Assembly: GCA_028718865.1 (NCBI GenBank)
Contig: JAQUKX010000005.1
Coordinates: 368 to 64,367, forward strand
Direction: 5' to 3'
From: Patescibacteria group bacterium
Lineage (GTDB): Bacteria > Patescibacteriota > Patescibacteriia > UBA1558 > GWA2-36-10
Length of the DNA stretch: 64,000 nucleotides
Every line of letters starts with the position of its first letter. The stretch's first letter is position 1. The position numbers and the translations under genes are program-made. Positions 23,719 to 40,064 of this stretch are shown here, piece by piece. The notes beneath the pieces are model-generated. The model ran no database searches. It was not told where the DNA came from and saw only the letters and a list, made by a program, of their open reading frames with translations.

Positions 23719-24606
23719 TTACTGCCAAATAGGATCTTTTATAAAAGGCTCTTCCGAAAAAATAACATAGCTAAAAACTCCGGAAACCGGTGCTATTGCC
23801 GGCATCACTGCCTTGAGACGATAGCGGGAATTGCGATAAATACCGTCGACTGTCATAGCTGTCCTTGAAAAGATGCCTAGATTATTATCGTCCTGATCCA
23901 TTATTCTCATTTCCAGTCTTTCTACTGGATTATTTAAAGGCTTAAAACTAAAACGATAATAGCGGTTTGGACTGATGTCATACACTACCGCCTGGCACTG
24001 ATCCGAGCCAAAAGCGCAATTGCAAATAGCCAAATCCTTGCGGCTCTCAAAATCTGTAAAACTCTGGGCAAAAGAATTAAAATTTATTTCCAAACGGTCA
24101 GAAGCATGGTAAGGAAAGCAATTTTTCACCTGCCAAATTATATGATATTTTGTTTGAAAAACTTCTGGCTGTTCTTCTACCCAATCAATGCCACTGACAC
24201 TCCCGGCCGGATCAATAATATCCACATAAGCAGCGGTGGTGGTAGTGAGATTGTAAGCGATAAAATTCTCGTGCTTCATCTGGCTCTCAATAATCTCAAA
24301 AGTCTGACCCGCCCCGATGCTAAATGCTTCTGCTTGACTCTCCAAAGCCCTAAATTCATCAAAATAACTGAAACGATAAGCATATTTGAGATGATGGAGA
24401 GCTTTTTCCATACCGCCATTGGCGGCATAAAAAGAACCAACTGAGTTGATGATATTGGCCGACATTCTGACTTCGCTCATGATAATCTTGGCAAAAGCCA
24501 AACTAGAAACCATAATCAAAGACAAAATCAACAAGGCCGTTACCAAGGCCATGCCCGAAGGGTCAGAAATATTTTTTGTTTTTTGGCTGAAATATTTGTT
24601 GAACAT
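23719..24606 (-). CDS. PilX-like minor pilin (PilX N-terminal domain)
   Basis: GMALVTALLILSLIMVSSLAFAKIIMSEVRMSAN matches the PilX_N pattern. Confidence 0.55.
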   Translation of the reverse strand: MFNKYFSQKTKNISDPSGMALVTALLILSLIMVSSLAFAKIIMSEVRMSANIINSVGSFYAANGGMEKALHHLKYAYRFSYFDEFRALESQAEAFSIGAGQTFEIIESQMKHENFIAYNLTTTTAAYVDIIDPAGSVSGIDWVEEQPEVFQTKYHIIWQVKNCFPYHASDRLEINFNSFAQSFTDFESRKDLAICNCAFGSDQCQAVVYDISPNRYYRFSFKPLNNPVERLEMRIMDQDDNNLGIFSRTAMTVDGIYRNSRYRLKAVMPAIAPVSGVFSYVIFSEEPFIKDPIWQ

Positions 24607-24615
24607 TTTTTGATA

Positions 24616-25266
24616 TTAGCGGCGATAAATCCGGGAAGAAACTGTTGTTTGAAAATTCTGACTGACTTGTTCTATCGCCCTGTTACTGGCGTAGTTCACC
24701 TGCAGGCGGATAGTAGCGCGAGGATGGTAATCGCAATCAGGATAATCCTCAATTTGATTACAACCTTTATAAGAATTGATATTTGGCTTGATATAAAAAT
24801 CCAGCTCATCCACTGAGATTTTATTACTAGCCGGTGACAATAAAATAGTAAAAGATGAGGGACTAGCTTCCCAAGGCTGACAACTGGTATAATCAATATT
24901 ACAATTCAAAACAACGTGATAAAGCGATTCATTATTCACGGTAAAAGCTGTCAAAAGTCCGTCTTCTCTAAGCAGAAGAATGCAGTTGGAGTATACCTCC
25001 CCCAAATAACCCGCGCAATCACCAGCGCTGGGATCAAAATCAAAAATCATATTGTTTCTGATTTCTCTGGCCATCATCTCCAAAGCGTACTGGGAATCAT
25101 TGAGCAAGCGCTGAGAAGCTCTGGACTGGGTCTGTAAACGGGAAAAAGCCAAATAAATCCCAGCAATAAGCCCTGTCATCAAAGCAAAAATCCCCACGGC
25201 AATAACCAGCTCCAAAAGAGAAAAGCCTTCTTTTTGTTTTTTTATTATCTTTATCATCGGCGCCAA
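24616..25266 (-). CDS. prepilin-type minor pilin (PilW/GspJ-like)
   Basis: Class III signal KEGFSLLELVIAVGIFAL (G|FSLLE). Confidence 0.65.
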   Translation of the reverse strand: MAPMIKIIKKQKEGFSLLELVIAVGIFALMTGLIAGIYLAFSRLQTQSRASQRLLNDSQYALEMMAREIRNNMIFDFDPSAGDCAGYLGEVYSNCILLLREDGLLTAFTVNNESLYHVVLNCNIDYTSCQPWEASPSSFTILLSPASNKISVDELDFYIKPNINSYKGCNQIEDYPDCDYHPRATIRLQVNYASNRAIEQVSQNFQTTVSSRIYRR

Positions 25267-25955
25267 TTATAAATCCTATCGTTTAATTCCAAATTATACT
25301 CTTTGCCGGCTCTGCTCCAATCAACTACTGCTGTCACTCTAAGACCGATTACAACTTCGTCTGACTGACATTCTTCTCTTTCTATTTCTTCCGGAAACGG
25401 TAAATTACCATCCCAGTCACGCTCCAAACAAATAGGCATCAATCTGACCAGGCGGGAAAAATTCGTTCTGGCATTCAATGATCCTGGCGATCCTAAATCA
25501 TGACTATAAAACCCATTCTGATCAATAAATAAAGGGCATTCATTTTGTCCTTTACACTGATTAAAACAAGCCAAAATATTACCAGGATCGGGGAATCCTT
25601 GGCAAATCTCACTTCCCCGGCTATAAATGTCATAATCAACCACCAAAAACAATTTATTTAAAGCCCCGTAATTCCAAGGAACAATAAAATCTTCACCGCC
25701 TATTTCCACTGTCTGATTGCTATCCGCCGCCAGCCAATTGCTGTCACGGATATTTCTCACTATTTCCAAAGCTTCTCTAGCCAAGTTAGCTGCTATTATC
25801 CTGTCCCGATTGCTTCTGTTTTCATTGAAATTTGCTAGAGCCAAAGTAAAAGCCGCCATAATCCCGATGGTAAAAACCGCAATAGTGATTATCAACTCCA
25901 CCAAAGTAAAAGCTTCTTGCCGGCCAGATGAATTATTTTTTCCGAAAAAAATCAT
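25254..25955 (-). CDS. PilV-like minor pilin
   Basis: QEAFTLVELIITIAVF prepilin motif. RDRIIAANLAREALE is typical of PilV. Confidence 0.7.
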   Translation of the reverse strand: MIFFGKNNSSGRQEAFTLVELIITIAVFTIGIMAAFTLALANFNENRSNRDRIIAANLAREALEIVRNIRDSNWLAADSNQTVEIGGEDFIVPWNYGALNKLFLVVDYDIYSRGSEICQGFPDPGNILACFNQCKGQNECPLFIDQNGFYSHDLGSPGSLNARTNFSRLVRLMPICLERDWDGNLPFPEEIEREECQSDEVVIGLRVTAVVDWSRAGKEYNLELNDRIYNWRR

Positions 25956-26620
25956 AACATTTCAAGTTGTTGCGGATCTTCTGGAGGCAAAGGCGGTCTT
26001 GGCGGGGTAAAATCTTCATAATAAAGTCCAAAATTCGCCCAAGTGTATTCTACTTCTCCCTGAGCATTAAAAGATTTCTCTCCTAAGGTAATAATGGATC
26101 GGTAGCCTTTGTTGGGGTAGCCCGGGCCGTTGTTAACAACCGCCAAAAGATACTTGCCGCTATCGTTGGCTGCCATATTGCTATCAGCTTGATTTTCTGT
26201 CAAAAAATTGACGTAAAAACTCGCTTTATCCTCAACATGATCTTTCAAATAAACATCGGTGTTATTGACGGTTCTTTCTTTGATAAGTATTTGTTGATCG
26301 CCAAAGTCGGCAAAAATCCTGTACCTAGCTTTGTTGTTAACCCTATCAAAAACAATCTTATAACCCGAAGAAGGATATTGAGCACCCTCCTCCTCACTTA
26401 AGGTATAAGTAGTCCGAGAGACTGCCAAATTTCTGACATAGCGAAGATCCGCCACCAAGAGATCGGTTTCTTCAATTATTTCGCTCTGCATACTTTTTTG
26501 GTTGATATTGATGATAAAAAAAGAAGAAATAATAGAAATAATAGCTATCACTATCAAAATCTCTACCAAGGTCAAGCCGCTATTTTCCTTCTGCAATTTT
26601 TTTGCTTTGAAAATTCTCAT
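25952..26620 (-). CDS. GspH/FimT-like pseudopilin
   Basis: NSGLTLVEILIVIAII prepilin motif. DLLVADLRYVRNLAVS is GspH-like. Confidence 0.7.
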   Translation of the reverse strand: MRIFKAKKLQKENSGLTLVEILIVIAIISIISSFFIININQKSMQSEIIEETDLLVADLRYVRNLAVSRTTYTLSEEEGAQYPSSGYKIVFDRVNNKARYRIFADFGDQQILIKERTVNNTDVYLKDHVEDKASFYVNFLTENQADSNMAANDSGKYLLAVVNNGPGYPNKGYRSIITLGEKSFNAQGEVEYTWANFGLYYEDFTPPRPPLPPEDPQQLEML

Positions 26621-26641
26621 AAAAATAAATAAATTATTATT

Positions 26642-27445
26642 TTAAAAAATAAATAAAGACCAATACCAATCAACCAGAATCTGGCCATAAAGCATAGTCA
26701 AAAAAGTAGCTAGCGCCAAAAAAGTGCCAAAAGGCAATTTGTCTTTGAGGCCTTTTTTGCGGCCAGCCAAAAGAAAAATGCTAAATACTGACCCTAGAAT
26801 ATAGGCAATAAATAAGGCTGTCAAAATATGCGGCCAGCCCAAAATCGCGCCCATCAGCGCTCCCAGCCGCACATCGCCGCCGCCTATCCAGCGGCCCTGA
26901 GAAATGACAAACTGCAAAAAGAAAAATCCGCCACCTACCAGCATAGCTGTAAACAAAGACCAGACTAACATGCCCAAAACCAAATTGGCGGTCAAAGCCA
27001 AAATTATTGCCGGCCAAACTACGCTGTCCAAAATCAAATAATACTTGAGGTCATAGACAAAAATAATAACCAAAAAGGCCGCCAACGCCCACCAGTTGAA
27101 CAAGTGCAAAATAACCAGAGGCGTCAAAAACTCCGGACTAAAATCCCCAAACAAGCGGACAAAAATCAAAACAAAAGCCAAGGCAGTAGCTAGCTCTACC
27201 AGCGGATACTGGACAGAAAATCGCTCACGGCAATAGCGGCAACGTCCTCTGAGGTACAAAAAGCTAAAAAAAGGCACTAGGTCCTGCGGATAAAGCTTGT
27301 GGCCGCAAAACAGGCACTTGGAAGAGCCGCGTATAAAGGACTCCTGTCTGTGCAGACGAAAAATAACCACATTGAGAAAACTGCCGACAAATAGCCCGAA
27401 AATAAAAACAAAAGCTACTATCATAGTAGCTTTATTATAACACAA
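26642..27445 (-). CDS. pilD: prepilin peptidase (A24 family)
   Basis: N-terminal zinc knuckle (CLFCGHKL...CRYCRERF) and eight TM helices with conserved Asp residues. Confidence 0.9.
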   Translation of the reverse strand: MCYNKATMIVAFVFIFGLFVGSFLNVVIFRLHRQESFIRGSSKCLFCGHKLYPQDLVPFFSFLYLRGRCRYCRERFSVQYPLVELATALAFVLIFVRLFGDFSPEFLTPLVILHLFNWWALAAFLVIIFVYDLKYYLILDSVVWPAIILALTANLVLGMLVWSLFTAMLVGGGFFFLQFVISQGRWIGGGDVRLGALMGAILGWPHILTALFIAYILGSVFSIFLLAGRKKGLKDKLPFGTFLALATFLTMLYGQILVDWYWSLFIF

Positions 27446-27466: not shown

Positions 27467-27901
27467 TTAATTGGCGCGACAAACCATATTCATAGCGGCT
27501 GTTATCCGACACTGGCCGCCTTTATTTTTGTCTATATTCCACAAAGGCCACTTGCGCTTGAGTTCAAACTCTATCAGATAATTGTCTGCCCGGCTGATAA
27601 TAGTAGCCGAACCGACCCAAGCAAAATCTCGGACAAAATAATACTTTTGCTCACCAGCGACATTCACGCCCTTATCGCTAATAGAGCCAATGGACACCGC
27701 CGAACTTCTGGTCAAATCCGGATAAACATTGAACTTATCATAATATCTCTCCAAACCAAAGGCCAGTTGTTTGGCTTGAGCTACTAGTAGCAGATCATCA
27801 GCTCGGCGCTTTTCTTCAGTAGTAATAATAAGTAAAAAAACCAGCAAAAAAACAAAAGCCATGATTAGAAATATTTTTGTTTTAAGACTGTAGTTAAACA
27901 T
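27467..27901 (-). CDS. pilin-like protein lacking a canonical prepilin cleavage motif
   Basis: N-terminal TM helix followed by RRADDLLLVAQAKQLAFGLERYYDKFNVYP, which resembles the conserved mature-pilin helix of GspG/PilA. No G-F-T-L-x-E leader. Confidence 0.4.
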   Translation of the reverse strand: MFNYSLKTKIFLIMAFVFLLVFLLIITTEEKRRADDLLLVAQAKQLAFGLERYYDKFNVYPDLTRSSAVSIGSISDKGVNVAGEQKYYFVRDFAWVGSATIISRADNYLIEFELKRKWPLWNIDKNKGGQCRITAAMNMVCRAN

Positions 27902-28159: not shown

Positions 28160-28200
28160 AAACAAAAAACTCTCCTTTAGGAGAGTTTTTTGTTTTTAAA
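28160..28200 (-). terminator. intrinsic terminator of the major pilin gene
   Basis: aactctcct-tta-ggagagtt hairpin with flanking T/A runs. Confidence 0.55.
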
Positions 28201-28219: not shown

Positions 28220-28636
28220 TTATGTTTCTATACAGCCGCTCGCTGTACATGTAATAGTGATAGTGCCATTAGTAGCTGCATAATTAAATGTGCCAGCGGA
28301 AGCAGAGCTATTACAAGTAGCACTATAACTCCAACCTGTTTGCTGAGCAACATTAGGCCAATTAATACTCGATCCTGTGCATATAGTACCTCCGGCTGTT
28401 GGGGTTTGGGCGCCTGCGCATGTAGCAGGAGTGGCCGCTCCATCATGTAAGTTTGCTCCCGCATCATGACAAAGAATTACACCTGGAATAATAGCTGCCA
28501 AAGATCCTTTGACCGCTGCTGTTCTTGCCTTGTCTCTAGCGCTATTTAAGTTTACCACCGCCACAGTGGACAAAATTCCGATGATGGCAATAACCACCAA
28601 AAGCTCAACTAAAGTAAAACCTTTTTTATTTCTCAT
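28220..28636 (-). CDS. pilA: type IV major pilin (start at [13 protein letters not shown] behind RBS GAGGAGGTGA)
   Basis: Class III signal [20 protein letters not shown]. Gly/Thr/Ala/Cys-rich C-terminal domain with six Cys. Confidence 0.85.
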
Positions 28637-28801
28637 TTTGTCACCTCCTCTCATACTAACTTTTGTTTTAGTTAAAACCCGAGATCTCCGAGGTTCTAGC
28701 CAAAAAACAAAAGCTAAAGGTGTTAATTTTTAAATATTTATAAAAATACGACTTTCTAATTATAGCATTTTTTCAAAAAACCAACAAGAAAAATAAAAAA
28801 A

Positions 28802-30010
28802 TTAGGAAATGCCCTGAGCAATTTTAAACATCGGCAACATTATGGCTGCTACCATACCACCCACGCCCACTCCCATGATGATAAGAATCATCGGCTCTAT
28901 CAAAGACGTCAGGCCAGCCACCAAATTATCTATTTCTCGGCTATAAAAAGAGCTTAATTTTTCTAGCACTGCATCCAGCTTGCCGGTACGCTCGCCTATC
29001 ACCATCATCTGGGAAAGCATCTTGGGCATCAGCGGTGATTTGACAAACAAACTGGCAATGGAATTGCCGCCTTCCACCTCATCCACTGTGTCCAAAATCA
29101 ACTTTTCATAAGCGTGATTATCTACTACTTCAGCGCTGATGGTCAGAGCCGAAGCAATAGGCACGCCGCCTCTGATGAGAGTGGACAAGCTTCTGGTAAA
29201 ACGTACTATATATATTTTTTTGAACAAAGAGCCAAAAATCGGCATTTCTATTTTAAAAGCATCCCAAGTAATTTTACCGGCTTTAGAGCTTACTAAAAAG
29301 CGGAAAATCACGATAAAAGCCGCTAGTCCAAAAAGAATAAAATACCAATAATCAGCCATAAAGCCGGAAATATTTATCAACAGACGAGTCAAAAAAGGCA
29401 GCTCGGCGCCGGTTTCTTCCAGCATCTGAGTCATCTGAGGCACCACAAAAACCATCATCAAAAATCCCACTGCTATCATGCCAAAGATAATAAAAGCCGG
29501 ATAAATCATGGCGCTTTTTACCCGCGAAACCAGATCATAATCTTTTTCCATCTGGTCAGCCAAATACTGCAAAATCTCGTCCAATTTACCCGAGGTTTCG
29601 CCGGATTTCAACATGGCTACATAAAAATTGCTAAACACTTTTTTATGCTTAGCCATGGAATCGGACAAGCGCATACCGCCTTCCACGTCATCGGCCATTT
29701 CTACTATCTTGGCGACAAAAATAGGATTAGTAGTTTGCTGAGATAATATTCTCAGCGACTGCACTATCGGCACTGTAGCAGAAATCATCACCGACAGCTG
29801 GCGGGAAAAAATCACCAGATCTTTAGCCGTCACGCTGCCAATATTTATATTGAATCCCTGCCGGCTTTTTTTTCTGGTTTCAGTCAAAGACACTATGCGC
29901 AAACCCCGCTCAGCCAAAAGCTCCGCCGCCTCATTTTCGCCGACTGCTTCTACTACTCCGGAGCTTATCTTGCCCTCACTGGTTCTGGCTCTGTATTTGT
30001 ATATAGCCAT
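28802..30010 (-). CDS. pilC: type IV pilus platform protein (GspF family)
   Basis: 402 aa. MAIYKYRARTSEGK start and two GspF repeats. Confidence 0.9.
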   Translation of the reverse strand: MAIYKYRARTSEGKISSGVVEAVGENEAAELLAERGLRIVSLTETRKKSRQGFNINIGSVTAKDLVIFSRQLSVMISATVPIVQSLRILSQQTTNPIFVAKIVEMADDVEGGMRLSDSMAKHKKVFSNFYVAMLKSGETSGKLDEILQYLADQMEKDYDLVSRVKSAMIYPAFIIFGMIAVGFLMMVFVVPQMTQMLEETGAELPFLTRLLINISGFMADYWYFILFGLAAFIVIFRFLVSSKAGKITWDAFKIEMPIFGSLFKKIYIVRFTRSLSTLIRGGVPIASALTISAEVVDNHAYEKLILDTVDEVEGGNSIASLFVKSPLMPKMLSQMMVIGERTGKLDAVLEKLSSFYSREIDNLVAGLTSLIEPMILIIMGVGVGGMVAAIMLPMFKIAQGIS

Positions 30011-30022: not shown

Positions 30023-31075
30023 TTATCTAAGAGAAGAAAAATCTGTTGATTCTTTTTTGGCTTCTTCCATGTTGACTTGGCCGCTTTTGACCAGCTCCAG
30101 CAGCGATTTATCCAAAACCTGCATGCCCTCGTCTCGGGAAGTCTGCATAATGCTCCTGAGCTGCTGAAAATTGCCGTCTCTGATACTGGCTTTTACCGCA
30201 TTGGTAGAAGTGAGCACTTCGCTGGCCACGATCTGTCCCCCGCCTATTTTTGGCAGCAACCTCTGTGATAAGACTCCCAACAAAACTTCCGGCAATACTT
30301 CCCGACCCCAAGTGCGTTTTTCTAGGCTCAAAAGACTCAAAAACCTCTCAATAGCTGAAATAGCTGAATTGGCGACTATCACCAAAATCAGCAACTTACC
30401 GCTTTCTACCAATTCCAGAGCTAAATCCGCCAAACCCGACTCATAAAACTGATCCAAAAAAGCCACATCTATGTCTTCATTGAACATGTCTTTGAGCCCC
30501 TGGCTGAAGCTCTCTACATCACGACCCACTTCTCTCTGTTCAATAATAGACTGATTATTGACAAACAAATATTCTATCGGCCTTTCCAAAGTCTGGATAT
30601 GGCGGCCTTTGTTTTGATTCAAAGTTTCTATCAAAGAAGCAGCTGTGGTGCTGCGCCCTGAGCCAAAAGGCCCGGAAATAATAATCAATCCTTTGTCTTT
30701 ATTGAGTAACTGCAAAATAGCCGTAGGAATTTTCAGTTCTTTTGGCGAAAGAATAAAAGCTGGAATAAGACGCAAAGAAATAGCTAAATAGCCTTTTTGA
30801 TAAAAAAACTTGACTCTGAATCTAGCCCGATTAGCCCAGACATAAGAAATAGATAATTCTTTTTTCTGACTAAGCTCAGCCAACTGCTCTCTGCTCAAAA
30901 AAGATTCGGCAATGGACTGGATAGTATCGGGATTGAGTATATCCTGATCCGTCAAAGTAATGATTTTGCCTTCAGCCCTGATAACCGGATTGTTGCCAGC
31001 TAAAAGATACAAGTCGCTGGCCTTGCTTTCCAAAAAAGTATTTAAAATATTGTTGATAAGTAGGGTCTCTGACAT
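30023..31075 (-). CDS. pilT: twitching-motility retraction ATPase
   Basis: 350 aa. Walker A GPFGSGRSTT and a PilT-type N-terminus. Confidence 0.88.
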   Translation of the reverse strand: MSETLLINNILNTFLESKASDLYLLAGNNPVIRAEGKIITLTDQDILNPDTIQSIAESFLSREQLAELSQKKELSISYVWANRARFRVKFFYQKGYLAISLRLIPAFILSPKELKIPTAILQLLNKDKGLIIISGPFGSGRSTTAASLIETLNQNKGRHIQTLERPIEYLFVNNQSIIEQREVGRDVESFSQGLKDMFNEDIDVAFLDQFYESGLADLALELVESGKLLILVIVANSAISAIERFLSLLSLEKRTWGREVLPEVLLGVLSQRLLPKIGGGQIVASEVLTSTNAVKASIRDGNFQQLRSIMQTSRDEGMQVLDKSLLELVKSGQVNMEEAKKESTDFSSLR

Positions 31076-31081: not shown

Positions 31082-31450
31082 CTATAAGATATCTTTTATT
31101 TTTTTGATTACCTCTGAAGGAACAAAATGAGCTTTGATAAGATAATCACTAGCTCCCAATTCCAAGCAACGGTCTATATGCTCTTTTTGCGAATAGTTGG
31201 TCAAAACTATCACTTTGACTTCTTTGGTTTCCTCATCTTGACGTAACTGCTTGAGCACCTCAAAACCGTCTATCTCCGGCAAATTGAGATCCAAAAGGAT
31301 CAAATCAGGTTTTTCTTTTTTGGCTACTTTGATGGCTTCTCGCCCATTGGTAGCCTCTACTACGCCAAAGCCCTCCAGTTCCAGCTTGGTAGTATACATT
31401 TGTAGTAAAAACTCATCGTCTTCCACAATAAGAATTTTTTTGTCTTCCAT
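31082..31450 (-). CDS. stand-alone CheY-like receiver (REC) domain protein (PilG/PilH-like)
   Basis: ILIVEDDEFL...D (phospho-acceptor in LILLDLNLP)...K. 122 aa with no output domain. Confidence 0.85.
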   Translation of the reverse strand: MEDKKILIVEDDEFLLQMYTTKLELEGFGVVEATNGREAIKVAKKEKPDLILLDLNLPEIDGFEVLKQLRQDEETKEVKVIVLTNYSQKEHIDRCLELGASDYLIKAHFVPSEVIKKIKDIL

Positions 31451-31451: not shown

Positions 31452-33194
31452 TTATTCTTCTATTTTACTTACTCTTAAAACTTCCTCCAGGGTGGTCAGG
31501 CCCAGCAAAACTTTGATAATACCATCTTGCTCCATATCAATAAAATGCTGTTTCTCTAGCTCTTCATTGACAGCTGAGCGGGAAAATCCCTTGGCAACCA
31601 CCTCCTGCAAATTGGTACTGATGTTTATTGCTTCCACTATAGCTAATCGGCCTTTGTAGCCAGTATGCCCGCAATGTGAGCAGCCTTTGCCATGATAAAA
31701 TTTTAGATTTTTAGGATCAATATCGCCAAAAATCGCTTCCTGAGGTATAGTTGCCAATTTCTGCCTAACATCTTCCACTAGGTTGTCTGGTAATTTTACT
31801 TCTTCTTTACATTTTTCGCAATTTTTCCTGACTAGACGCTGAGCAACAATAGCATTGAGAGTAGAGGCAAGTAAAAATGGCTCTACATGCATATCAAATA
31901 ATCGCGGTATGGCGCCAATAGCGCTATTGGTATGCAAGGTAGTCAAAACCGAGTGGCCAGTCAAGCCAGCATGGATAGCTAGTTCAGCTGTTTCATTGTC
32001 ACGAATTTCTCCTACCATGATAATATCGGGATCCTGACGCAAAAGAGCTCGTAGTCCAGTAGCAAAAGTAAAATTTACTTCTGGCCTTATCTGTGACTGG
32101 TTGACTCCTGGGATATAATACTCTACCGGATCTTCCAAGGTAGCGATATTGACATCTTCTTTATTGAGATAGCTCAAAGCGGCAAACAAAGTGGTTGATT
32201 TTCCACTGCCAGTCGGACCAGTGAGTAAAAACAAGCCATTGGGTTTGTGGATATTTTTTTCCACGATTTTCAGCTGCAGCCCCATAAAGCCTAGATCGGA
32301 AAAAGTCGGTGCCCGCTCTGGCGTATCCAGTATACGCATCACTACTTTTTCCTGACCCAGCAAAGGTATGGTAGAAATACGAAAGTCGATTTCTTTGTTG
32401 TGCACCTTGATGCGAATACGGCCGTCCTGCGGTATCCTGGTTTCATCTATTTTCAAGTTGGCCATTACTTTTATTCTGGAAACCAAAGCTGCATGGACAT
32501 AAATAGGCAAAACTATGGTAGTATGAAGGACGCCGTCTATTCTGTATCTGACCTTGCTCTGTTTGCCTACCGGCTCAATATGAATATCAGAAGCCCGCCC
32601 CTCTATGGCATGGCGCAATACTACCGAAACTATCTTGGAAACCGGAGCGCTTTTTATCACTTCGCCCAAATCAGCCGAAGCCTCCAAAAAATCATCCTTG
32701 GGAGCAAAAATCGCTTCCGCTGTATCTAAGGCTTCACCCACTTCTTCACCCAAAGTTTCATATTGCTTGGCGGCCGAACGATAGCTATCTTCAGAAATTA
32801 TATAATACTTGAAAGTAAAATTCTTCTTGCGAGCCAAAAAATTCAGCGCTTCAATTGCCTTGAAATTGGTCGGATCTACCAAGCCCACTTCAATATTTTT
32901 GCCTTGGCGGTCAAAAACCACCATTTGATAGTTTTCCGACAAATTAAGCGGCAAAATATTCAAAATCGCCGAGTCAATCTTGCGGCCGACCAAGTTGACA
33001 TAATCCATTTCATAAAAAGCCGCCTTGACGCTGATCCAATCTTCCTCAGAAATCAAAGACAAACGGCGAACCGATTTTTCCAAATCCTCAAAAGAATCAA
33101 AATCACTGGCGGCCAATTCTTGATATTGGTCGTCGTTTATAAATTCTCGTTTTCGTAAAAGATATAAAAGCTTTTTGCTTTCTGGTCTAGTCAT
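31452..33194 (-). CDS. pilB: type IV pilus assembly ATPase (GspE family)
   Basis: Walker A GPTGSGKSTT, a GSPII_E N-domain and a C-terminal zinc motif CSHCGHTGYKGR. Confidence 0.9.
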   Translation of the reverse strand: MTRPESKKLLYLLRKREFINDDQYQELAASDFDSFEDLEKSVRRLSLISEEDWISVKAAFYEMDYVNLVGRKIDSAILNILPLNLSENYQMVVFDRQGKNIEVGLVDPTNFKAIEALNFLARKKNFTFKYYIISEDSYRSAAKQYETLGEEVGEALDTAEAIFAPKDDFLEASADLGEVIKSAPVSKIVSVVLRHAIEGRASDIHIEPVGKQSKVRYRIDGVLHTTIVLPIYVHAALVSRIKVMANLKIDETRIPQDGRIRIKVHNKEIDFRISTIPLLGQEKVVMRILDTPERAPTFSDLGFMGLQLKIVEKNIHKPNGLFLLTGPTGSGKSTTLFAALSYLNKEDVNIATLEDPVEYYIPGVNQSQIRPEVNFTFATGLRALLRQDPDIIMVGEIRDNETAELAIHAGLTGHSVLTTLHTNSAIGAIPRLFDMHVEPFLLASTLNAIVAQRLVRKNCEKCKEEVKLPDNLVEDVRQKLATIPQEAIFGDIDPKNLKFYHGKGCSHCGHTGYKGRLAIVEAINISTNLQEVVAKGFSRSAVNEELEKQHFIDMEQDGIIKVLLGLTTLEEVLRVSKIEE

Positions 33195-33201: not shown

Positions 33202-33597
33202 TTAAAATCCGAAAAATCCGCCTTGCCTGATTAACTCTTCATCGGAAGTAGTAGCGGTAGAAACAAAAGGGTTAGGATTGCCGATATCTTCACTGATGTT
33301 TATCACTACTTCCAACTCTTCCAGCTGGCGATATTGTTCGTCGTTATAAAAATTTTCCCAAATTGACTCTGGTCCCAAGCTTTCCAATTTGAGAAAATCA
33401 CTGATATTATCCAAAGCAATAGCCTTTAATCTCATTACTCTGGCTAGCTCTACATTTTGTTGCACTTCTAAATCAAGAGAGGTTTCCTCTGGTTTGAAGC
33501 TGTCATAAAGCCAAAAAGCAGACACTATCAAAACCAAGCCAAAAATCGCCAAAAGTACCAGTAAAGTTTTTTTATCGTTTTCTTTTGTCTCAGGCAT
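33202..33597 (-). CDS. membrane-anchored hypothetical protein (possible PilP analogue)
   Basis: 131 aa with a single N-terminal TM helix. Lies between pilO-like and pilB. Confidence 0.4.
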   Translation of the reverse strand: MPETKENDKKTLLVLLAIFGLVLIVSAFWLYDSFKPEETSLDLEVQQNVELARVMRLKAIALDNISDFLKLESLGPESIWENFYNDEQYRQLEELEVVINISEDIGNPNPFVSTATTSDEELIRQGGFFGF

Positions 33598-33602: not shown

Positions 33603-34274
33603 TTAACGATAATAAGTAATCAAATCCAAATTAAAGCTGGCTATTGAGCTGCCGCTGGTGAGCTCACCGAAAGAAATAGTCTGAATATCCATCAAACGCA
33701 AATTACTCTGTAAATCTTCTACATAATCCTTAAAATCCTGATAAATATCCGGTGACTCCTGCTCGGGCAATCCGGTTATATCCAAAGGCCGAGCTAAAGA
33801 TAAATGAACTACCAAAGATTTAAGCGGAGCATCTTGCCCAACCTCTGCTCTATCCGGCTCAGTACTAGCTGCTGACCCACGATCGCTAATATTGATAGAT
33901 GTAAGAGTAAACAAATGCCGAGCTGCCAAGCGATCAGCTATTACGAACAACTCAGCAATTTGCGGCTCCTCGGGCAATATTTTTTTGATTTTTTCCAAAT
34001 CCTGGGCTCGAGACGACCTTATGCTCAGATATTCTTCTTCCAATTCCCGAATTCTAGTCAGCAATTTTTCATTTTGGACCCTTCTTTCTTCTGTTTCTAT
34101 ATCCTGTTCCCTGACTTGAGAGATATCATCTAGCTTGGGATTGAGCAAAAAGAAATAAGACAAAGCAAAGACCCCGGCCAGCAAAACAAACAGAATCAAA
34201 ACAAAATAACGATTGGCCAGCAAAAGCAGTTCCGAGGGCTGTTCAAATTTTATTTCTTTTTTTCTGATGGGCAT
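33603..34274 (-). CDS. PilO-like protein
   Basis: N-terminal TM helix followed by a coiled coil. Position follows pilN. Confidence 0.5.
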   Translation of the reverse strand: MPIRKKEIKFEQPSELLLLANRYFVLILFVLLAGVFALSYFFLLNPKLDDISQVREQDIETEERRVQNEKLLTRIRELEEEYLSIRSSRAQDLEKIKKILPEEPQIAELFVIADRLAARHLFTLTSINISDRGSAASTEPDRAEVGQDAPLKSLVVHLSLARPLDITGLPEQESPDIYQDFKDYVEDLQSNLRLMDIQTISFGELTSGSSIASFNLDLITYYR

Positions 34275-34293: not shown

Positions 34294-35700
34294 TTATTGA
34301 GACCGCGGTCCATAGCCGTAATAAAATAAATTCTCATTGAGCACCAAAGTAACACTGAAAGCCACGCCGTTGGCTTGCAGTGAAGCTGCCGAAATGCTGG
34401 CCATAGAAACAAACTCTCTAGCCTCAGGCTGCTGCAGGAGCTTCAACAGCCGTGCCGGCGAATCATAATCACGACCAATAGCATTGAGAGTGAGCGCTCC
34501 CTTATTGCCAGCATTTATCCCCTGATAATAAACTTCTGTAGGAGTATATTTTTCCAGCATAGCAAAAAAATTGGTCCAATAGATATGCTTATTCAAAAGA
34601 TTGTGCACTGTTTTTATTTCCTGACCCAAAGCGCTGATTTCCTTATTGATAAGCTCATATTCCAAAATCTTTTTTTCCAAATCCGATATCTGACTACTGC
34701 GCCTTTCCTGCTGTTTGCGGATATTGTGCTCCTGGAAGGACAAATAAGCATAAAATGACCCAGCGACCAAGATTGATCCCAAAAAAGCCGCCAAAGCCAA
34801 AATTCCTATCTGGCGCCAGCTCTTGGTTCTGACTGACTTAGGTATCAAATCCAGGCCGCCACCGCCGTCAACAAATCTATCCGACTGCTTGTCTGTAGGA
34901 CGATGAAACCTATCAGTTGAAGCCTTGCTCTTATTGCCATTATCTTGAAGCGGCGGACTGACTATCTCTGGTATGGAAAAATCTCTTTTTTTTGTCTCCA
35001 GCTGATCAAAAGATGTCTTCAACGCCGGGATAAATGCTTCTGGCGCCGGCGCTCTTGCCAGCGGCTCTTTTATAGGCTCTTCTTCTAGGACTGGTTTCTG
35101 TGTTTCGACTTTTGGCGCCGGCGCCGAGTTTTTGGCGTCATCATGCAGGCTCTTAAGCAATATGGAGTCAGCACCGTTTTTCAAAGGCTGAGCTTGATAT
35201 TGGTTTTTTTCCTGCGGCTCTTTCCCTTTTTTGTCTTGCTTGGGACGGCCGGCAAATTTGCTCTTTAGCTTGACCCAAAAAGAAATTTTCTTTTGCGAGG
35301 GAACCGAGCTGTCTGGCAGAGAAAAATCAAAACCGGATTTTTTGACATAGTGGATCTTTCTTTCTTCTGGCCTGGCTTCTTTTTTGGGAATATGAACTGA
35401 AGAAAATTCTCGTTTTTGTTTCTTGGGTGATTGCAGGCGGTCAAAATCAATATCGCCTGTATCTTTTTCTGTTTTTTTGACTTGACCCGGCTTAGGCGCT
35501 TGAGGAATTTGAAAACGGGTCTTTTTAGAAAAAACATTTTTGAATTTCTGGCCAAACAAACCGGCTGACTTCAAAGGCCGAGACTGCTCTACTGAATCAG
35601 GCACTACTAAATCAATATGAAAATCGCGCGGCTGTTGACTCTTGTCTTCTTTAGCTCGCAAGTCTTCCGGTAATAAATTGATGTTTCTGTCGCTAGACAT
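34294..35700 (-). CDS. PilN-like protein with a long disordered cytoplasmic insertion
   Basis: N-terminal INLLPEDLR PilM-binding motif. A second DLIPKSVR copy sits immediately before the single TM helix. C-terminal PilN-like periplasmic domain. Confidence 0.55.
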   Translation of the reverse strand: MSSDRNINLLPEDLRAKEDKSQQPRDFHIDLVVPDSVEQSRPLKSAGLFGQKFKNVFSKKTRFQIPQAPKPGQVKKTEKDTGDIDFDRLQSPKKQKREFSSVHIPKKEARPEERKIHYVKKSGFDFSLPDSSVPSQKKISFWVKLKSKFAGRPKQDKKGKEPQEKNQYQAQPLKNGADSILLKSLHDDAKNSAPAPKVETQKPVLEEEPIKEPLARAPAPEAFIPALKTSFDQLETKKRDFSIPEIVSPPLQDNGNKSKASTDRFHRPTDKQSDRFVDGGGGLDLIPKSVRTKSWRQIGILALAAFLGSILVAGSFYAYLSFQEHNIRKQQERRSSQISDLEKKILEYELINKEISALGQEIKTVHNLLNKHIYWTNFFAMLEKYTPTEVYYQGINAGNKGALTLNAIGRDYDSPARLLKLLQQPEAREFVSMASISAASLQANGVAFSVTLVLNENLFYYGYGPRSQ

Positions 35701-35706
35701 AAAAAC

Positions 35707-36834
35707 TTAAAAAATATCTCTCATTGCCAGCCCCAGGCAAACTGACATGCGCGGCCCCATCTCGTCCAGTATCGGCTTGAGATCCAAAGGATAAATTATC
35801 CTGTCCCAAGGATCGCCGATAATTACCGAGATATTGAGCAGTTCTGACAAATACTGGGGAAAATTGGGCAAAAAAGAGCTGCCGCCGGTAAGAATTATTT
35901 TTTCTATACTGCCGGTATCCTGCTTGTGATAGCGGTCAAAGACATAGCGAATTTCATTGATAATGGCATCAAGCGATTTTTTTATAACATCAGGTATTTT
36001 CTGATCACCACCAGCTAAAGACAAGCCAAAATCACGCTTAAATTGCTCAGCCCTGTCTTTACTGACATTAAGGCTGTTCATAATAGTAGTAGTGATAGAC
36101 TCGCCTCCCATATCCAGCCCCTGGTTAATAATAGGCACACCTTCTTCAATAATACAGATATCCGTTGTAGTCGAGCCCACATCCACTATCATCACCGTTG
36201 ACCTGTCGTTGCCCAAAAGCGAACGAGCTAAGGCAAAAGACTCTGTTTCTAGACTAAGCAAATTGAGCTTGGCTCGCTTGAAGATATCAATATAGCGAGC
36301 TACTAGATTTTTGGGAGCGGCTGTGAGCAAAATACGGTAATTCTGCTCATCCTGTTTGACATTAGCCTTGCCGGCGCTATCTGACTGAATGTCTCCATTT
36401 TTTTTATCAGCTTCTTTTTTATCTTTTTTCAGTCCTTGACTTTTACGTTTAGCACCAATTATCTTCCAATCCAAAATAGTTTCCTCCAAAGGCACGGGGA
36501 TGAATTTTTTGGCCTCCCATTTGATAGCCGAAGCCAAATCCTTTTTGGGCATGGGAGGCAAGTTGATAATAAAATTAAAAACCGAAAAAGTCGGCAAAGC
36601 CGCTACTGCCGATCTGGTCTGAGTATTGGCTTTTTTGGTTATTTCATTAATATAACGGGCTATTTTTTCATTATTTTGTTCTATATCGCCACCCAAGACA
36701 TTGACTGCCGCATCGGCATAGCCGTAGGTCTTAAGACGAGCCTGATTTTTGAAGTTTTCAAGCTCAACAATCTTGATACTGGAGGTACCAATATCCACTC
36801 CCAAATAACTAGTAGAACTGGAAAATAATCCCAT
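35707..36834 (-). CDS. pilM: actin-like ATPase
   Basis: YLGVDIGTSSIKIVEL ... DVGSTTTDICII ... ILTGGSS are the actin/PilM motifs. Confidence 0.85.
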   Translation of the reverse strand: MGLFSSSTSYLGVDIGTSSIKIVELENFKNQARLKTYGYADAAVNVLGGDIEQNNEKIARYINEITKKANTQTRSAVAALPTFSVFNFIINLPPMPKKDLASAIKWEAKKFIPVPLEETILDWKIIGAKRKSQGLKKDKKEADKKNGDIQSDSAGKANVKQDEQNYRILLTAAPKNLVARYIDIFKRAKLNLLSLETESFALARSLLGNDRSTVMIVDVGSTTTDICIIEEGVPIINQGLDMGGESITTTIMNSLNVSKDRAEQFKRDFGLSLAGGDQKIPDVIKKSLDAIINEIRYVFDRYHKQDTGSIEKIILTGGSSFLPNFPQYLSELLNISVIIGDPWDRIIYPLDLKPILDEMGPRMSVCLGLAMRDIF

Positions 36835-36904
36835 ATTTATTATTTTGCTAAAAACTTAAATAACACTTGATATTATAACACATTTGACAATCTTAGCCAA
36901 AGAA

Positions 36905-39037
36905 CTACTGCAAGGTCTCACTGAACCTCGGTATCATGCGGCTGAAATCAACAAAACCAAAAGGCGGATTGGCTTGCAAGCGGCCGTCATTGATGAAAAG
37001 CTCTGACGGCTGAAGATTAGCCGGGTCATAAAAACCACGGCAAAGTTCAAAACGACGCGCTAAAACATTACCGTTCACTGTCAAAGAATTATTAGCACAC
37101 TGGCCGGGATTATTTGAATTACAGGAAACAAAACGACCGCAAGAAGCATCGTCGGCATCATAAGGATCAAGACTGCATTGAGGCAGTCCGCCCGAACAGG
37201 TTGTACTATCTTCTGCTCCTAGAATAATAAAAGTTCCGGCTATCGTGCTAACCTCAGGGTGCACATAGACATCGCCTCTGACTACCCAAACTATAGAGGG
37301 AATCATTTTTAAATTACTTACCGCGGTTGAAGGATCGTATATAATATTTGAAGTAATGGTTAAATCCCCTTCTACTACCACTACTACCGAAGCGTTTTGC
37401 GGTAAAATAATTCCCGTTTCCCCCAATTTGATAGAAAAACCACCAGTAGTCAGGTTGCCCTGAAAATGAATGGTTTTGCCATTTGTTACTTGATTAAACT
37501 GGTCGGAAAAAGTATTAGGGTTATTATGCCTGACCACTTGAGAGCCATATTTATTGTAAGCATTTCCGCCGGATTGATAAGCTGGTGTAATCAATCCCCG
37601 ATAATCAACTGTGCCCAAAACATTCTGATATTTTCCCGACTGACTTAAATAAGAAAAAAAATCAATGGCCGGACGGCTGGGCATCTCGCCTTGATAACGG
37701 CCTTCCAAAGTACTAGAGCTGATAAAATTTCTGATGGTGCCGCCTGACTCAATCAAAAATGAAGCATTAGCACGGTTATAAGGTGGGTAATAACGAGCAA
37801 AAATATCGCCTCGGGAATAAACACTGCCATCACTTACTTCTATAAAAGGCCTGGTAGTGGTTGATATTCTTGAAGAAAATTGGAGCCAACCTAAGCTATA
37901 GTCATCATCCTGCCATTGATTATAAGCCCAGCCACACATATAAGCCCTGTCTCTGAAGCTAATCTCTCTGTTGTCAGTATCATATATCTTATAATCCACC
38001 ATCACCCCGGGTCGGCTAAAATAACTATCGCAAGACTGGCAATGGTTGAGGTTGCCCTGATAGGCGCTCGTGCCGCAAATATTGTCGTAATTTTCTATAG
38101 TACATCCGATACAGTCATATCCACCTATCACGCCACGCATATCACCAGCTTGGTATTGCAAACAAATATTGTTTTCGCCTTCACAAGCAGTGACCGAACA
38201 ATCCGCTCCGGTCTGACTACAAACAGCTGTATCAGCATTATAATAATCATACTCCAGACAATTATCACAATTATAATTGATATTAACTGCCTGACAAATG
38301 CCAAAGGCCTCTTTTTCCGCTGGCGGACAAAGCAAGTTAACACAAGAATCAACATTACCGGGACAGAAACAATTAGCTCCTCCGGTTCGACAGGCATACT
38401 GATATTGCTCATAGCAATTGAAACAGCCGTTTATTTCCGCTGGCGGACTCGCCACCGCCTCTTCTATTGGAAAACGCAAACGCCAAGCCAGTAAATCCCC
38501 AAGCGATTCTAATCCTACAATACTGGCATATTGATCAGTAGATAAAGCGTTCAAATAAGTACTGGACAAAGCAATGCCATTTGCCGGCGCATTGGTACTT
38601 CCTGGATCAGAAAAACAAATCCAGCCCAAAGTGACTGTCTGACAAGGACCAGCTATTCCACAATTGGCATCAATAGTACAAGCTGCTCCGTTGCCTTGGC
38701 AAAAACCACCGATATTTAAAGGCGTGCCAGCCCAAGCACAGCCTTGGATATGATTAGTACCGCTAACATTGACGATATTCAATCCATAATCAATATCATC
38801 ACAAGTATTGTCCAATTGACCATCGCCGTCAAAATCGTTGAAGCAATTGAGACTTATCCAGCCCAAAATATCAGACCAGACCCAGTCGCCAATCGCTATA
38901 GGAGAGTCTTCTGGCACCGGATCAGCCTGAGTGAGAACCGGATTTTTGATGGACTGATGGACAAAAAACAAAAGCAGAAGAAAAATCGCCATTATACCCA
39001 AGCGGCTATAAAAATGAAAATGAAAGTCTGATTTCAT
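36905..39037 (-). CDS. large cysteine-rich secreted protein (candidate pilus-associated adhesin)
   Basis: Signal peptide ending LTQA. More than 45 Cys, many in CxxC/CxC spacing. C-terminal region has beta-rich repeats. Confidence 0.55.
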   Translation of the reverse strand: MKSDFHFHFYSRLGIMAIFLLLLFFVHQSIKNPVLTQADPVPEDSPIAIGDWVWSDILGWISLNCFNDFDGDGQLDNTCDDIDYGLNIVNVSGTNHIQGCAWAGTPLNIGGFCQGNGAACTIDANCGIAGPCQTVTLGWICFSDPGSTNAPANGIALSSTYLNALSTDQYASIVGLESLGDLLAWRLRFPIEEAVASPPAEINGCFNCYEQYQYACRTGGANCFCPGNVDSCVNLLCPPAEKEAFGICQAVNINYNCDNCLEYDYYNADTAVCSQTGADCSVTACEGENNICLQYQAGDMRGVIGGYDCIGCTIENYDNICGTSAYQGNLNHCQSCDSYFSRPGVMVDYKIYDTDNREISFRDRAYMCGWAYNQWQDDDYSLGWLQFSSRISTTTRPFIEVSDGSVYSRGDIFARYYPPYNRANASFLIESGGTIRNFISSSTLEGRYQGEMPSRPAIDFFSYLSQSGKYQNVLGTVDYRGLITPAYQSGGNAYNKYGSQVVRHNNPNTFSDQFNQVTNGKTIHFQGNLTTGGFSIKLGETGIILPQNASVVVVVEGDLTITSNIIYDPSTAVSNLKMIPSIVWVVRGDVYVHPEVSTIAGTFIILGAEDSTTCSGGLPQCSLDPYDADDASCGRFVSCNSNNPGQCANNSLTVNGNVLARRFELCRGFYDPANLQPSELFINDGRLQANPPFGFVDFSRMIPRFSETLQ

Positions 39038-39071
39038 CAGTCTATTTAAGAGCTATAAGCTTACTTTTAAA

Positions 39072-40064
39072 TTATTGCAAATCAACGTATTTCCAAGTTG
39101 TATTACAAATATATAACCTACTATTAGCATGATCAAAAAGCATCTTGCCTTTTGAGTTGATATCACAATGCCCGGCATCAGGCGGCCCATTTTTATGATG
39201 AATAGTCAAATAATTAACCTGCCCGCTAACATGTGCTAGCTCTACATTGCCAACAAAATAACCAGCCTTTCCAGTAGCAGCCACTTGCTGACCATAGACA
39301 CCAATAGCGCCAGAAGTTTCGCCAACACCCAAAACTCCGATACCTACGCCAGAAGCATAGCCATTATCTCTTACACCCAGAAAACCAGTGGCTGATACTG
39401 AACCTCCAGAGGTTCTAAAATTACCTGCTACTCCTCTGCCAAAGTTGGCCTGAGTCTGTCCATAAATAGCATAGCTATTGGCCGTATTATTAAATACATC
39501 AAGATAATAATTGGGGTTTGATTTATTGATACCTACTTTTCCATCAGTAGAAAAATAAACCCTATCGGTATTATTCCAAAAAATTAACTGATTATTCTCA
39601 CTCCTATGCTGATAAATCCCCCAGCTATTGCCAGCGTCACTTTGCAATTTTATTTCTGCGTTCTGACCAGAAAGCCTATAAATATGCAGAGGGTTAGCCG
39701 GGTCGCTAATTCCTATGCCGACATTATCCGTAGAATAATGAATTTTATTACCCGCGCCAGCCTGCCAAAATCCAGTTGGCCAAGTTGCTCTGCAGTCAAC
39801 GCCAATGCAAACCTGACTACCTTCAACATTGCCGCTGGCTGTAATTTTAGCAGCACTTATATCTCCGCCATTGAATAAATTTTTTCCACTTAAATCCAAA
39901 TTTGTAGTCATTGGGTTGACCACAATCACTCCCGGACCCGTCTGACCAGGCAGTTGACCTGGATTTTGCCACTGGGCTTGAGCGTATTGATAAATCAAGC
40001 CAAAGCTCAAAACCGAAACAATCACCGCCAAAATGGGCAATTGCCAATTTTTTATTTTGCTCAT
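39072..40064 (-). CDS. secreted tail-fibre/collar-like repeat protein
   Basis: Signal/TM at the N-terminus. TDNVGIGISDPANPLHIY and KVGINKSNPNYYLDV motifs resemble phage tail-fibre collar repeats. Confidence 0.5.
   Translation of the reverse strand: MSKIKNWQLPILAVIVSVLSFGLIYQYAQAQWQNPGQLPGQTGPGVIVVNPMTTNLDLSGKNLFNGGDISAAKITASGNVEGSQVCIGVDCRATWPTGFWQAGAGNKIHYSTDNVGIGISDPANPLHIYRLSGQNAEIKLQSDAGNSWGIYQHRSENNQLIFWNNTDRVYFSTDGKVGINKSNPNYYLDVFNNTANSYAIYGQTQANFGRGVAGNFRTSGGSVSATGFLGVRDNGYASGVGIGVLGVGETSGAIGVYGQQVAATGKAGYFVGNVELAHVSGQVNYLTIHHKNGPPDAGHCDINSKGKMLFDHANSRLYICNTTWKYVDLQ

Follow-up and report, generated by a model that had tools for sequence, protein, structure and literature searches.

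Operons for secretin-less type IV pili (T4P) are an established hallmark of bacteria of the candidate phyla radiation (CPR), and passages of four studies (PMC6744442, PMC9894109, PMC10633639, PMC12206443) indicate that such pili matter for the epibiotic growth of Saccharibacteria, with host attachment and motility as the roles proposed for them in the same passages. In this work, we describe the complete T4P operon of a Patescibacteria lineage, located on a 64-kb stretch of DNA (contig JAQUKX010000005.1 of assembly GCA_028718865.1, positions 368 to 64,367, forward strand), hereafter referred to as the window; statements on the content of this genome cover these 64 kb. As a mere pilus the locus is ordinary, because secretin-less operons are already a hallmark of CPR bacteria. 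Within it, a 710-aa Cys-rich beta-helix protein encoded before pilM, an operon-embedded CheY-like receiver (REC) and a PilT homologue without catalytic motifs are fixed parts of the machine in this clade. The beta-helix family before pilM, the embedded receiver, the degenerate PilT and a PilN with two PilM-binding-type motifs are undescribed in the literature searched. We read the locus, with a probability of roughly 0.6, as encoding a secretin-less adhesion pilus of type IVa-like (T4aP-like) character, with a protein that is PilY1-like by architecture and with CheY-type control of PilB against an inert PilT-like ring.

The closest described systems resemble this locus in separate parts. The T4P of Saccharibacteria (TM7x T4P-1, TM7i, Southlakia) and the CPR gene set of Meheust et al. 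2019 likewise comprise PilB, PilC, PilM, PilN, PilO, PilD and pilins without a secretin and, in the passages available, have an MdbA/DsbA-like oxidoreductase nearby, as is also the case here; those passages contain no receiver by pilB, degenerate PilT, double-motif PilN or conserved protein upstream of pilM. The adhesins proposed there for TM7x are minor pilins with accessory domains (PilX2 beta-propeller), whereas the candidate in the present locus is a non-pilin beta-helix protein. PilY1, the tip-associated adhesin of the T4aP of Pseudomonas and Myxococcus, is similarly a large, Sec-exported, pilus-linked non-pilin, present once per pilus system, whose C-terminal module is conserved and whose N-terminal adhesion modules vary, but it is a beta-propeller encoded in the minor-pilin operon, while the 710-aa protein is modelled as a beta-helix, has no Pfam match at E<=0.01 and no propeller matches, and its gene precedes pilM. 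ComZ of Thermus thermophilus (6QVI; PMC6561018) is a pilus-associated, large beta-solenoid and the best PDB fold match of the 710-aa protein; unlike the latter, it is a DNA-binding pilin with a prepilin leader, and the match is non-significant (E 0.07). Receivers proposed to control the activity or localisation of PilB/PilT include PilG/PilH of the Pseudomonas Chp system, PixG/PixH of Synechocystis Tax1 and DrdR of Xanthomonas (PMC11656802, PMC11181946, PMC13507683), which reside in chemosensory or two-component operons with a known kinase and are not embedded among motor genes, in contrast to the bare 122-aa receiver found here in a pilB-REC-(pilT-like)-pilC arrangement. The retraction ATPases PilT and PilU, among which ATPase-dead PilT has been engineered, have a full-length family member in this locus, in which the Walker A Lys, Asp box, Walker B Glu and His box have been lost naturally and throughout the clade. 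Canonical PilN presents a single N-terminal INLLP peptide, shortly before its transmembrane helix, that is bound by PilM. The PilN described here shares the INLLP-type N-terminal peptide, the one transmembrane helix and the periplasmic PilN domain, but it has two motifs, one at the extreme N-terminus and one at the canonical position before the membrane helix, with 100-400 disordered residues between them.

The case for a conserved machine rests on gene order. One genome per GTDB species was scanned, which yielded 60 loci from Komeilibacteria, Parcubacteria, Nomurabacteria, Kuenenbacteria, Falkowbacteria, Uhrbacteria and other Patescibacteria, and the contents of these loci were mapped by tblastn with the window proteins. 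A conserved order of LemA, then tail-fibre-like protein, beta-helix protein, pilM, pilN, pilO, small protein, pilB, REC, pilT-like gene, pilC, pilA, 144-aa protein and pilD is present in loci L001 and L002, in a third JGI contig and in about 35 GTDB species loci. The three contigs traced from homologues of the 710-aa protein all carry LemA on the other strand, followed by one to three secreted proteins, the Cys-rich protein, PilM, a long PilN, PilO, a protein of ~120 aa, PilB, REC, PilT-like protein and PilC. As the same order is seen in dozens of independent genomes, the arrangement lies far above chance. In every locus with enough sequence (35/35), pilM starts <=400 nt from the end of the beta-helix gene, and REC lies <=200 nt past pilB in 28 of 32 loci. 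Three distant family members picked at random (27-33% identity, with other N-terminal modules) all directly precede pilM. An earlier note on this DNA, made from the sequence alone, had named a failure of the two large secreted proteins to be co-conserved with the pilus genes in relatives as grounds for giving up its reading; co-conservation is upheld by the 35 of 35 loci for the beta-helix gene and by ~24 loci for the tail-fibre-like gene. The operon varies in its motor genes: the Uhrbacteria loci and L063 have pilB-REC-pilC without pilT, and those of Kuenenbacteria and Falkowbacteria have neither REC nor pilT. As a side observation, metagenome-assembled genomes titled "uncultured Gammaproteobacteria" (L011, L012, L013, L019, L023, L032, L034, L040, L044) carry the typical Patescibacteria pilus operon, and their titles are probably wrong.

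The two secreted proteins at the 5' end of the locus are as follows.

36905 to 39037, minus strand: 710-aa Cys-rich secreted protein, with MKSDFHFHFYSR followed by a hydrophobic helix, three GW..GW[IL]x[LF] motifs and a C-terminal beta-helix module of ~330 aa
39072 to 40064, minus strand: 330-aa secreted or anchored tail-fibre-like repeat protein, with VGIGxxxPxxxLH[IV] repeats (phrog_18345, E 5.5e-12)

The 710-aa protein, which is 100% identical to NCBI protein PHO91_02595 of a Patescibacteria group bacterium, contains 34 cysteines (4.8%), not the more than 45 counted in the earlier note, and 16 of them are invariant across 30 homologues. It is a member of a large unannotated family: the first-round homologues form 41 clusters at 32-59% identity, all without a name, and a profile search of 1.84 billion representative proteins returned 2984 relatives at E<=1e-3, 693 at <=1e-10 and 357 clusters at <=1e-30. 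The core common to the whole family spans profile positions ~360-690 (~330 C-terminal residues), while the N-terminal parts differ among members and include Laminin_G_3 (lectin), PKD, Big_7, fn3 and DUF4215 Cys-repeat modules. Sequence and profile searches of Pfam, NCBIfam, PHROGs and the PDB gave nothing above threshold for the protein or its family; DUF7305 (gathering threshold 27 bits), which is in no paper of the literature searched, was not reached, with 11 of 66 relatives matching it weakly (best E 3e-4; one at 17.3 bits) and the window protein giving no match. A repeat homologue search with a distant-member profile led back to the close set and showed no member in which the domain is fused to a pilin leader.

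An AlphaFold2 model of this protein, built on 30 homologues (mean predicted local distance difference test score (pLDDT) 71.7), consists of a helix at residues 2-28, a beta-rich Cys-rich region and, at 460-700, a beta-helix-like domain of good confidence; residues 390-458 are among the best conserved in sequence, yet are modelled with low confidence. Searched with Foldseek against the PDB, the model had no significant match, the only ones below E 0.1 being two Thermus ComZ chains (E 0.07, probability 0.30, TM-score 0.10-0.19), followed by generic beta-helix proteins, and no match was found among viral structures (BFVD). At the N-terminus of the close subfamily, MK-x-DFHFHFYSR (MKSDFHFHFYSR), the hydrophobic helix and QKSV are almost invariant. 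Approximately 8-10 residues past the helix, nearly all homologues have an Ala with a small residue at -3, a pattern that fits signal peptidase I, and distant members of the family have ordinary signal peptides. The prepilin pattern G↓FxxxE is absent from this N-terminus. Thus neither the C-terminal PilY1/PilC beta-propeller domain that defines the PilY1 family nor the prepilin leader and beta-solenoid in a pilin fold that define ComZ-like modular pilins are found in the 710-aa protein. We favour a pilus-borne, PilY1-like adhesin, because the conserved C-terminal module, exchangeable adhesin-type N-termini, Sec export and strict pilus linkage together correspond to the PilY1 architecture. Separately, the alternating Phe/His peptide DFHFHFY lies within 39003-39037 (codons 1-12 of the ORF). 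The FHFHFY pattern has been used in designed metal-binding amyloid peptides (PMC12559458), which by analogy hints at a metal-binding or beta-strand-pairing role for the conserved N-terminus; as a genome-wide sorting signal it was ruled out, since the window has a single copy of it and, within the family, it is confined to the close subfamily.

The 330-aa protein has a second tail-fibre match in PHROGs (phrog_9942, E 2e-6). Paralogues at the same position in L001 and L002 (one to three copies) are 28-32% identical to it and also match tail-fibre PHROGs. The matches of ~24 loci between LemA and the beta-helix gene were obtained by tblastn, and in the more distant loci tail-fibre-like genes were undetected by this method.

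The motor section of the operon contains the following genes.

31452 to 33194, minus strand: PilB extension ATPase (T2SSE, E 4e-127, plus MshEN)
31082 to 31450, minus strand: stand-alone CheY-like receiver, 122 aa (PF00072, E 3e-29; D11, D12, D54, T84, Y103, K106)
30023 to 31075, minus strand: PilT-family protein with degenerate catalytic motifs (aligned to Aquifex PilT 2EWV, E 4e-73; TIGR01420 300 bits, cut-off 319)
28802 to 30010, minus strand: PilC platform protein (T2SSF, E 1e-58)

In PilB, the Walker A, Asp box, Walker B and His box are all intact in 34 loci (the window and 33 others). The receiver possesses every element of a CheY-like protein, namely the acidic pair, phospho-acceptor Asp, Thr/Ser, aromatic switch residue and Lys. 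D11, D12, D54 and K106 are present in 30 of 30 orthologues (52-80% identity), T84 and Y103 in 29 of 30, and the phospho-acceptor, whose absence would have counted against the earlier note, is D54. The conservation of the receiver equals that of PilB and PilC and exceeds that of every extracytoplasmic part.

The gene read as pilT in the earlier note does encode a PilT homologue, but not a normal PilT, as all four catalytic motifs are degenerate. Relative to 2EWV, the Walker A motif has changed from GPTGSGKSTT to GPFGSGRSTT (R141 for Lys), the Asp box from EDPIE to ERPIE (R165), the Walker B from VGEMRD to LDQFYE (Q209 for the catalytic Glu) and the His box from TGH...LHT to SGK...IVA (K227 and V234 for both histidines). 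All four losses are repeated in each of the 24 recovered PilT-like orthologues; two more distant ones keep the Walker A Lys and have lost the other motifs. The PilT-like proteins are full length (350-356 aa) and 55-62% identical, and are therefore maintained by selection. Judged from these motifs, the PilT homologue is a predicted pseudo-ATPase, and the locus appears to encode no catalytically competent retraction motor in this clade. Accordingly, the suggestion that the receiver exerts phospho-relay control over extension and retraction ATPases stands as regards an intact receiver fixed in the operon, and needs revision as regards an active retraction ATPase. Because the Uhrbacteria and L063 keep pilB-REC-pilC without pilT, the receiver is tied to PilB rather than to the PilB/PilT pair. 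A cognate histidine kinase (HisKA, HATPase_c), which the earlier note proposed to seek elsewhere, was not found among the scanned large open reading frames (ORFs) of the window, a scan that did not cover every small ORF, and no chemosensory genes were seen in the window. Nothing relevant on a natural pseudo-PilT, a CPR receiver in pil operons or the motifs of the 710-aa family was found in the literature searched.

The alignment or platform genes, which lie between the beta-helix gene and pilB, are listed below.

35707 to 36834, minus strand: PilM, actin-like ATPase (PilM_2 PF11104, E 6e-42; TIGR01175 166 bits, above cut-off)
34294 to 35700, minus strand: PilN, 468 aa, with a long disordered N-terminal extension (PF05137 at residues 378-452, E 1.4e-4)
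35668 to 35682, minus strand: first PilM-binding-type motif, INLLP, PilN residues 7-11 (INL[LM]PE[DN]LR at the N-terminus in ~25 orthologues)
34840 to 34854, minus strand: second PilM-binding-type motif, LDLIP, PilN residues 283-287 ([VL]DL[IV]P just before the transmembrane segment in ~25 orthologues)
33603 to 34274, minus strand: PilO (27-orthologue profile matches Myxococcus PilO 3JC8, E 8.5e-7)
33202 to 33597, minus strand: 131-aa bitopic protein, C-terminal GNPxPF motif, fixed place between pilO and pilB

The Pfam match of PilN (22.2 bits) is slightly under the cut-off of 22.8, and its position and architecture are conserved. The two motifs that the earlier note had recognised in it hold up well, both being kept in ~25 orthologues, with the membrane segment at ~298, ~15 residues past the second motif, and with a disordered linker of 100-400 residues bearing conserved SFWxKxK patches. 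In more distant lineages, PilN has the N-terminal motif only, ~200 residues from the transmembrane helix. The double motif could provide two PilM contacts per PilN, or one of the two could act as a tethered competitor. In PilM, a Lys/Asp-rich low-complexity insertion (KRKSQGLKKDKKEADKKNGDIQSDSAGKANVKQDEQN) at residues ~127-160 (36370-36480) cuts the PilM_2 match in two. The 131-aa protein has no match among Pfam, NCBIfam, PHROGs or PDB profiles; N107, P110 and F111 are invariant among 16 aligned orthologues, and its GNPxPF may resemble PilP-type motifs.

The pilin section completes the locus at its 3' end.

28220 to 28654, minus strand: major pilin candidate, KKG↓FTLVE (N_methyl, E 1e-10), flanked by intergenic regions of its own and followed by a strong terminator
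27467 to 27901, minus strand: 144-aa membrane-anchored pilin-like protein without prepilin site, conserved MFNYSL N-terminus, C-terminal Cys pair
26642 to 27445, minus strand: PilD prepilin peptidase (A24_N_bact, E 1e-30, plus Peptidase_A24)
25952 to 26620, minus strand: minor pilin, GspH/FimU-like (N_methyl; TIGR01708, E 7e-8)
25254 to 25955, minus strand: minor pilin, PilV/GspI-like (N_methyl; TIGR02523, E 1.4e-6)
24616 to 25266, minus strand: minor pilin, PilW/GspJ position, ComGE-like N-terminus (N_methyl)
23719 to 24606, minus strand: minor pilin, PilX/GspK-like, 295 aa, without Glu5 as in GspK (PilX_N, E 3.7e-4; T2SS_GspK, E 3.3e-4; both below curated cut-offs)

The 144-aa protein, described in the earlier note as a pilin-fold protein lacking the prepilin site, indeed has no class III signal (no N_methyl match, and MFNYSLKTK... 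without the Gly/Phe/Glu pattern), while the fold is seen only as the topology of an AlphaFold2 model (pLDDT 77), with a 52-residue helix at 6-57 and a four-stranded sheet, whose best Foldseek matches, PilV, PilA and PulG, are non-significant (E>=0.7). Comparison with the pilin of the locus by hhalign gave no profile similarity. C131 and C141 are conserved, and at least 10 loci encode an orthologue between pilA and pilD. On the basis of the model, it is reasonable to regard the protein as pilin-like, uncleaved and membrane-anchored.

The feature list of the locus thus runs over 17 genes, from the tail-fibre-like gene (5') to the PilX/GspK-like gene (3'). All long ORFs from 40064 down to 23719 lie on the minus strand according to the ORF calls, scans with Pfam and NCBIfam verified the coordinates and strand of the pilus genes, and the gene order given in the earlier note was borne out by both. 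No ORF of the locus has a secretin or PilP family match in Pfam, NCBIfam or profile scans, in agreement with the CPR literature (PMC6744442), so that the PilQ secretin and PilP lipoprotein of a diderm type IVa pilus are absent from these matches. The components of the type IVa-like pilus in its monoderm or secretin-less form are present, namely an intact PilB, PilC, PilD, PilM, PilN, PilO, class III pilins and four core minor pilins; a catalytically competent PilT was not found at the locus. A Gram-positive Com (ComG) pilus was ruled out, given the presence of PilM, PilN, PilO and the PilT homologue and PilB/PilC family scores far above those of ComGA/ComGB. Possible regulatory sites and the ComF-family gene near the operon are listed below.

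40110 to 40139, minus strand: promoter-like site, TTGTCA-18-TATAAT with TG, upstream of the first gene (11/12 consensus; a consensus match only, not evidence of function)
36872 to 36900, minus strand: promoter-like site, TTGGCT-17-TATAAT with TG, upstream of pilM (a consensus match only)
28160 to 28195, minus strand: terminator-like hairpin, 16-bp stem, 3' of the pilin gene, the top-ranked terminator-like site of the region
44312 to 45019, plus strand: ComF-family gene (TIGR00201, E 1.5e-28, below curated cut-off)

The earlier note had placed ComFC 4 kb downstream and taken it as consistent with DNA uptake. The gene is instead on the plus strand, 4.2 kb past the 5' (upstream) end of the operon, with LemA, an M48 peptidase and ClpB in between, and its value as a sign of DNA uptake is weak, as it belongs to a separate divergent housekeeping block. 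This LemA-M48-ClpB-ComF block (40189-45019, plus strand) is itself syntenic with the pilus operon in many genomes, including L001 and L002, with LemA 74-89% identical. On the other side, 4-5 kb downstream of the pilus locus, a DsbA/MdbA-like thioredoxin (18575-19345, minus strand; Thioredoxin_4, E 1e-26) adjoins Lgt (17787-18575, minus strand). A role of this oxidoreductase as a folding factor for the 34-Cys protein and for pilin disulfides is plausible; the corresponding CPR oxidoreductase family (MdbA/DsbA-like) is discussed in a passage of PMC6744442.

In the preferred reading of an adhesion pilus with a receiver-controlled extension motor, PilD would, by homology, process one major pilin and the four core minor pilins (GspH/I/J/K-like), and PilB, with its intact motifs, would be expected to drive polymerisation through PilC, with PilM, PilN and PilO as the alignment or platform set. 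The C-terminal module of the beta-helix protein may dock on the pilus or on the minor-pilin complex, leaving the variable N-terminal modules (Cys-rich, lectin, Ig/PKD) to contact the host cell, and the tail-fibre-like proteins encoded upstream may be further host-binding fibres. The receiver, phosphorylated by a donor that is not among the large ORFs of the window, would bind PilB and/or the inert PilT-like ring and would gate PilB either directly or by favouring the PilT-like ring, setting an active motor against an inactive ring on the PilC/PilM platform. Extension would thereby come under on/off control, and retraction, if it occurs at all, would be passive and not powered by a conventional PilT motor. 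A broader proposal, which we put forward only tentatively, is that in much of Patescibacteria T4P operate without a retraction motor, with the dead PilT ring as a "clutch" that competes with PilB for the PilC/PilM platform under the embedded CheY, PilM held by a two-peptide PilN, and the beta-helix family replacing PilY1 as the epibiont host-recognition factor.

Several points weigh against the preferred reading. The beta-helix gene adjoins pilM and not the minor pilins, next to which PilY1 genes usually lie, and the ComZ fold match of its product is non-significant. The predicted inactivity of the PilT homologue is deduced from motif loss, the proposed binding of the receiver to PilB or the PilT-like protein solely from gene order and conservation, and a canonical PilT or a histidine kinase may lie outside the 64 kb. 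Furthermore, the near-invariant N-terminal 30 residues (MKSDFHFHFYSR, helix and QKSV) could be a retained membrane anchor, which would imply a structural, cell-bound role. It seems somewhat unlikely that the 710-aa protein is, on these lines, a membrane-anchored collar or conduit spanning the wall or S-layer and standing in for the PilP/PilQ/TsaP layer, rather than a tip adhesin. Such a role would suit a gene that lies right before pilMNO in 35 of 35 loci, where alignment-complex genes sit, in a locus with no secretin or PilP; the near-invariance of the N-terminus, helix included, in the close subfamily would be unusual for a discarded signal peptide, and the conserved but low-confidence segment 390-458 could fold only on oligomerisation or partner binding. 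It fits poorly with a family in which only the C-terminal third is conserved throughout and the N-termini give way to lectin, PKD, Ig and Cys-repeat modules of the kind that adhesins usually have, as well as with the cleavable-looking signal peptides of distant members and the near-constant Ala, with its small residue at -3, that fits signal peptidase I 8-10 residues past the helix.

The lectin, Ig and tail-fibre modules point to cell-surface binding and so speak against a mainly DNA-uptake (competence) pilus with the beta-helix protein as a ComZ-like DNA receptor, which we consider improbable. Its appeal lies in the two ComZ chains, the only PDB fold matches below E 0.1, in the ComF-family gene 4 kb off in a conserved neighbourhood, and in the wide co-occurrence of Com genes and T4P in CPR described in passages of PMC6744442 and PMC10633639. 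However, the ComZ match is non-significant (probability 0.30, TM-score 0.10-0.19) and the 710-aa protein is without a prepilin leader; ComF stands outside the operon in the divergent LemA/M48/ClpB block, no ComEC, ComEA or DprA adjoins the locus, and the essentiality of the Southlakia T4P is, in the passage concerned, independent of comEC (PMC10633639). With regard to the motor, full-length PilT homology (E 4e-73), a partly retained AIRNLIRE-type region and clear purifying selection (55-62% identity, constant length) would also be expected of a still active retraction motor with non-canonical residues, in which case the receiver would tune a normal PilB/PilT antagonism. We regard this as distinctly improbable, as the four motifs needed for hydrolysis have changed together in 24 orthologues while the neighbouring PilB keeps all of them, and sister lineages drop pilT and retain REC. 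Finally, it is very doubtful that the two secreted proteins encoded upstream are ordinary surface proteins whose genes simply happen to adjoin the pilus genes, with no functional tie to the pilus: although a promoter-like site separates the beta-helix gene from pilM, and tail-fibre-like genes vary from one to three copies and were undetected in the more distant loci, the adjacency of beta-helix gene and pilM persists at 23-40% identity, also where the LemA-side neighbours differ. For the tail-fibre-like genes taken by themselves, the status of mere neighbours of the pilus operon is plausible.

Beyond the pilus locus, the window contains a diversity-generating retroelement (46921-49780, minus strand) with a reverse transcriptase at 46921-47970 (RVT_1, E 2e-28), a template repeat at 48366-48496 and a variable repeat at 48904-49034; the repeats are 131 nt long and differ at 22 positions, 21 of them at template adenines. 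The mismatches affect codon positions 1 and 2 of ORF 48899-49780 (293 aa, no Pfam match), which makes this ORF the likely target, and the retroelement accounts for the GC-rich stretch with overlapping ORFs at 48-50 kb. The window also carries a tmRNA gene (15058-15466, plus strand) and four tRNA genes (17620-17693; 46127-46795), three of which lie directly beside the reverse transcriptase gene, and a 63-nt repeat (46316-46378 and 50043-50105; 73% identical) runs from the 3' end of the tRNA at 46264-46336. In a 676-aa ORF (3785-5815, plus strand), two enzymes that modify tRNA A37 in consecutive steps appear to be fused, as it contains both a MiaB-like methylthiotransferase (UPF0004, Radical_SAM, TRAM) and a MiaA IPP-transferase domain. 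A VirB4/TraG-type P-loop ATPase (57453-59348, minus strand) lies among unannotated ORFs of membrane-protein size (55060-61895); this region is probably the Patescibacteria type IV secretion cluster of bioRxiv 10.1101/2025.01.22.634366.

T4P are thought to play a central part in the way the ultra-small CPR bacteria locate host cells, attach to them and live on them, and the mechanism of T4P is known nearly entirely from diderm model organisms and a few Saccharibacteria. The comparisons presented here define a conserved operon for the much larger, uncultivated part of the radiation formed by Parcubacteria, Komeilibacteria and Uhrbacteria, in which the beta-helix family, with its hundreds of clusters, is the strongest candidate for a host-recognition or envelope-crossing part. 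They also point to a CheY-like switch hard-wired to the extension motor in organisms with very few signalling proteins. If the inactivity of the PilT homologue is true, it would bear on the means by which pili are retracted or turned off when no PilT motor is present, and on the role that ATPase-dead PilT rings can have.

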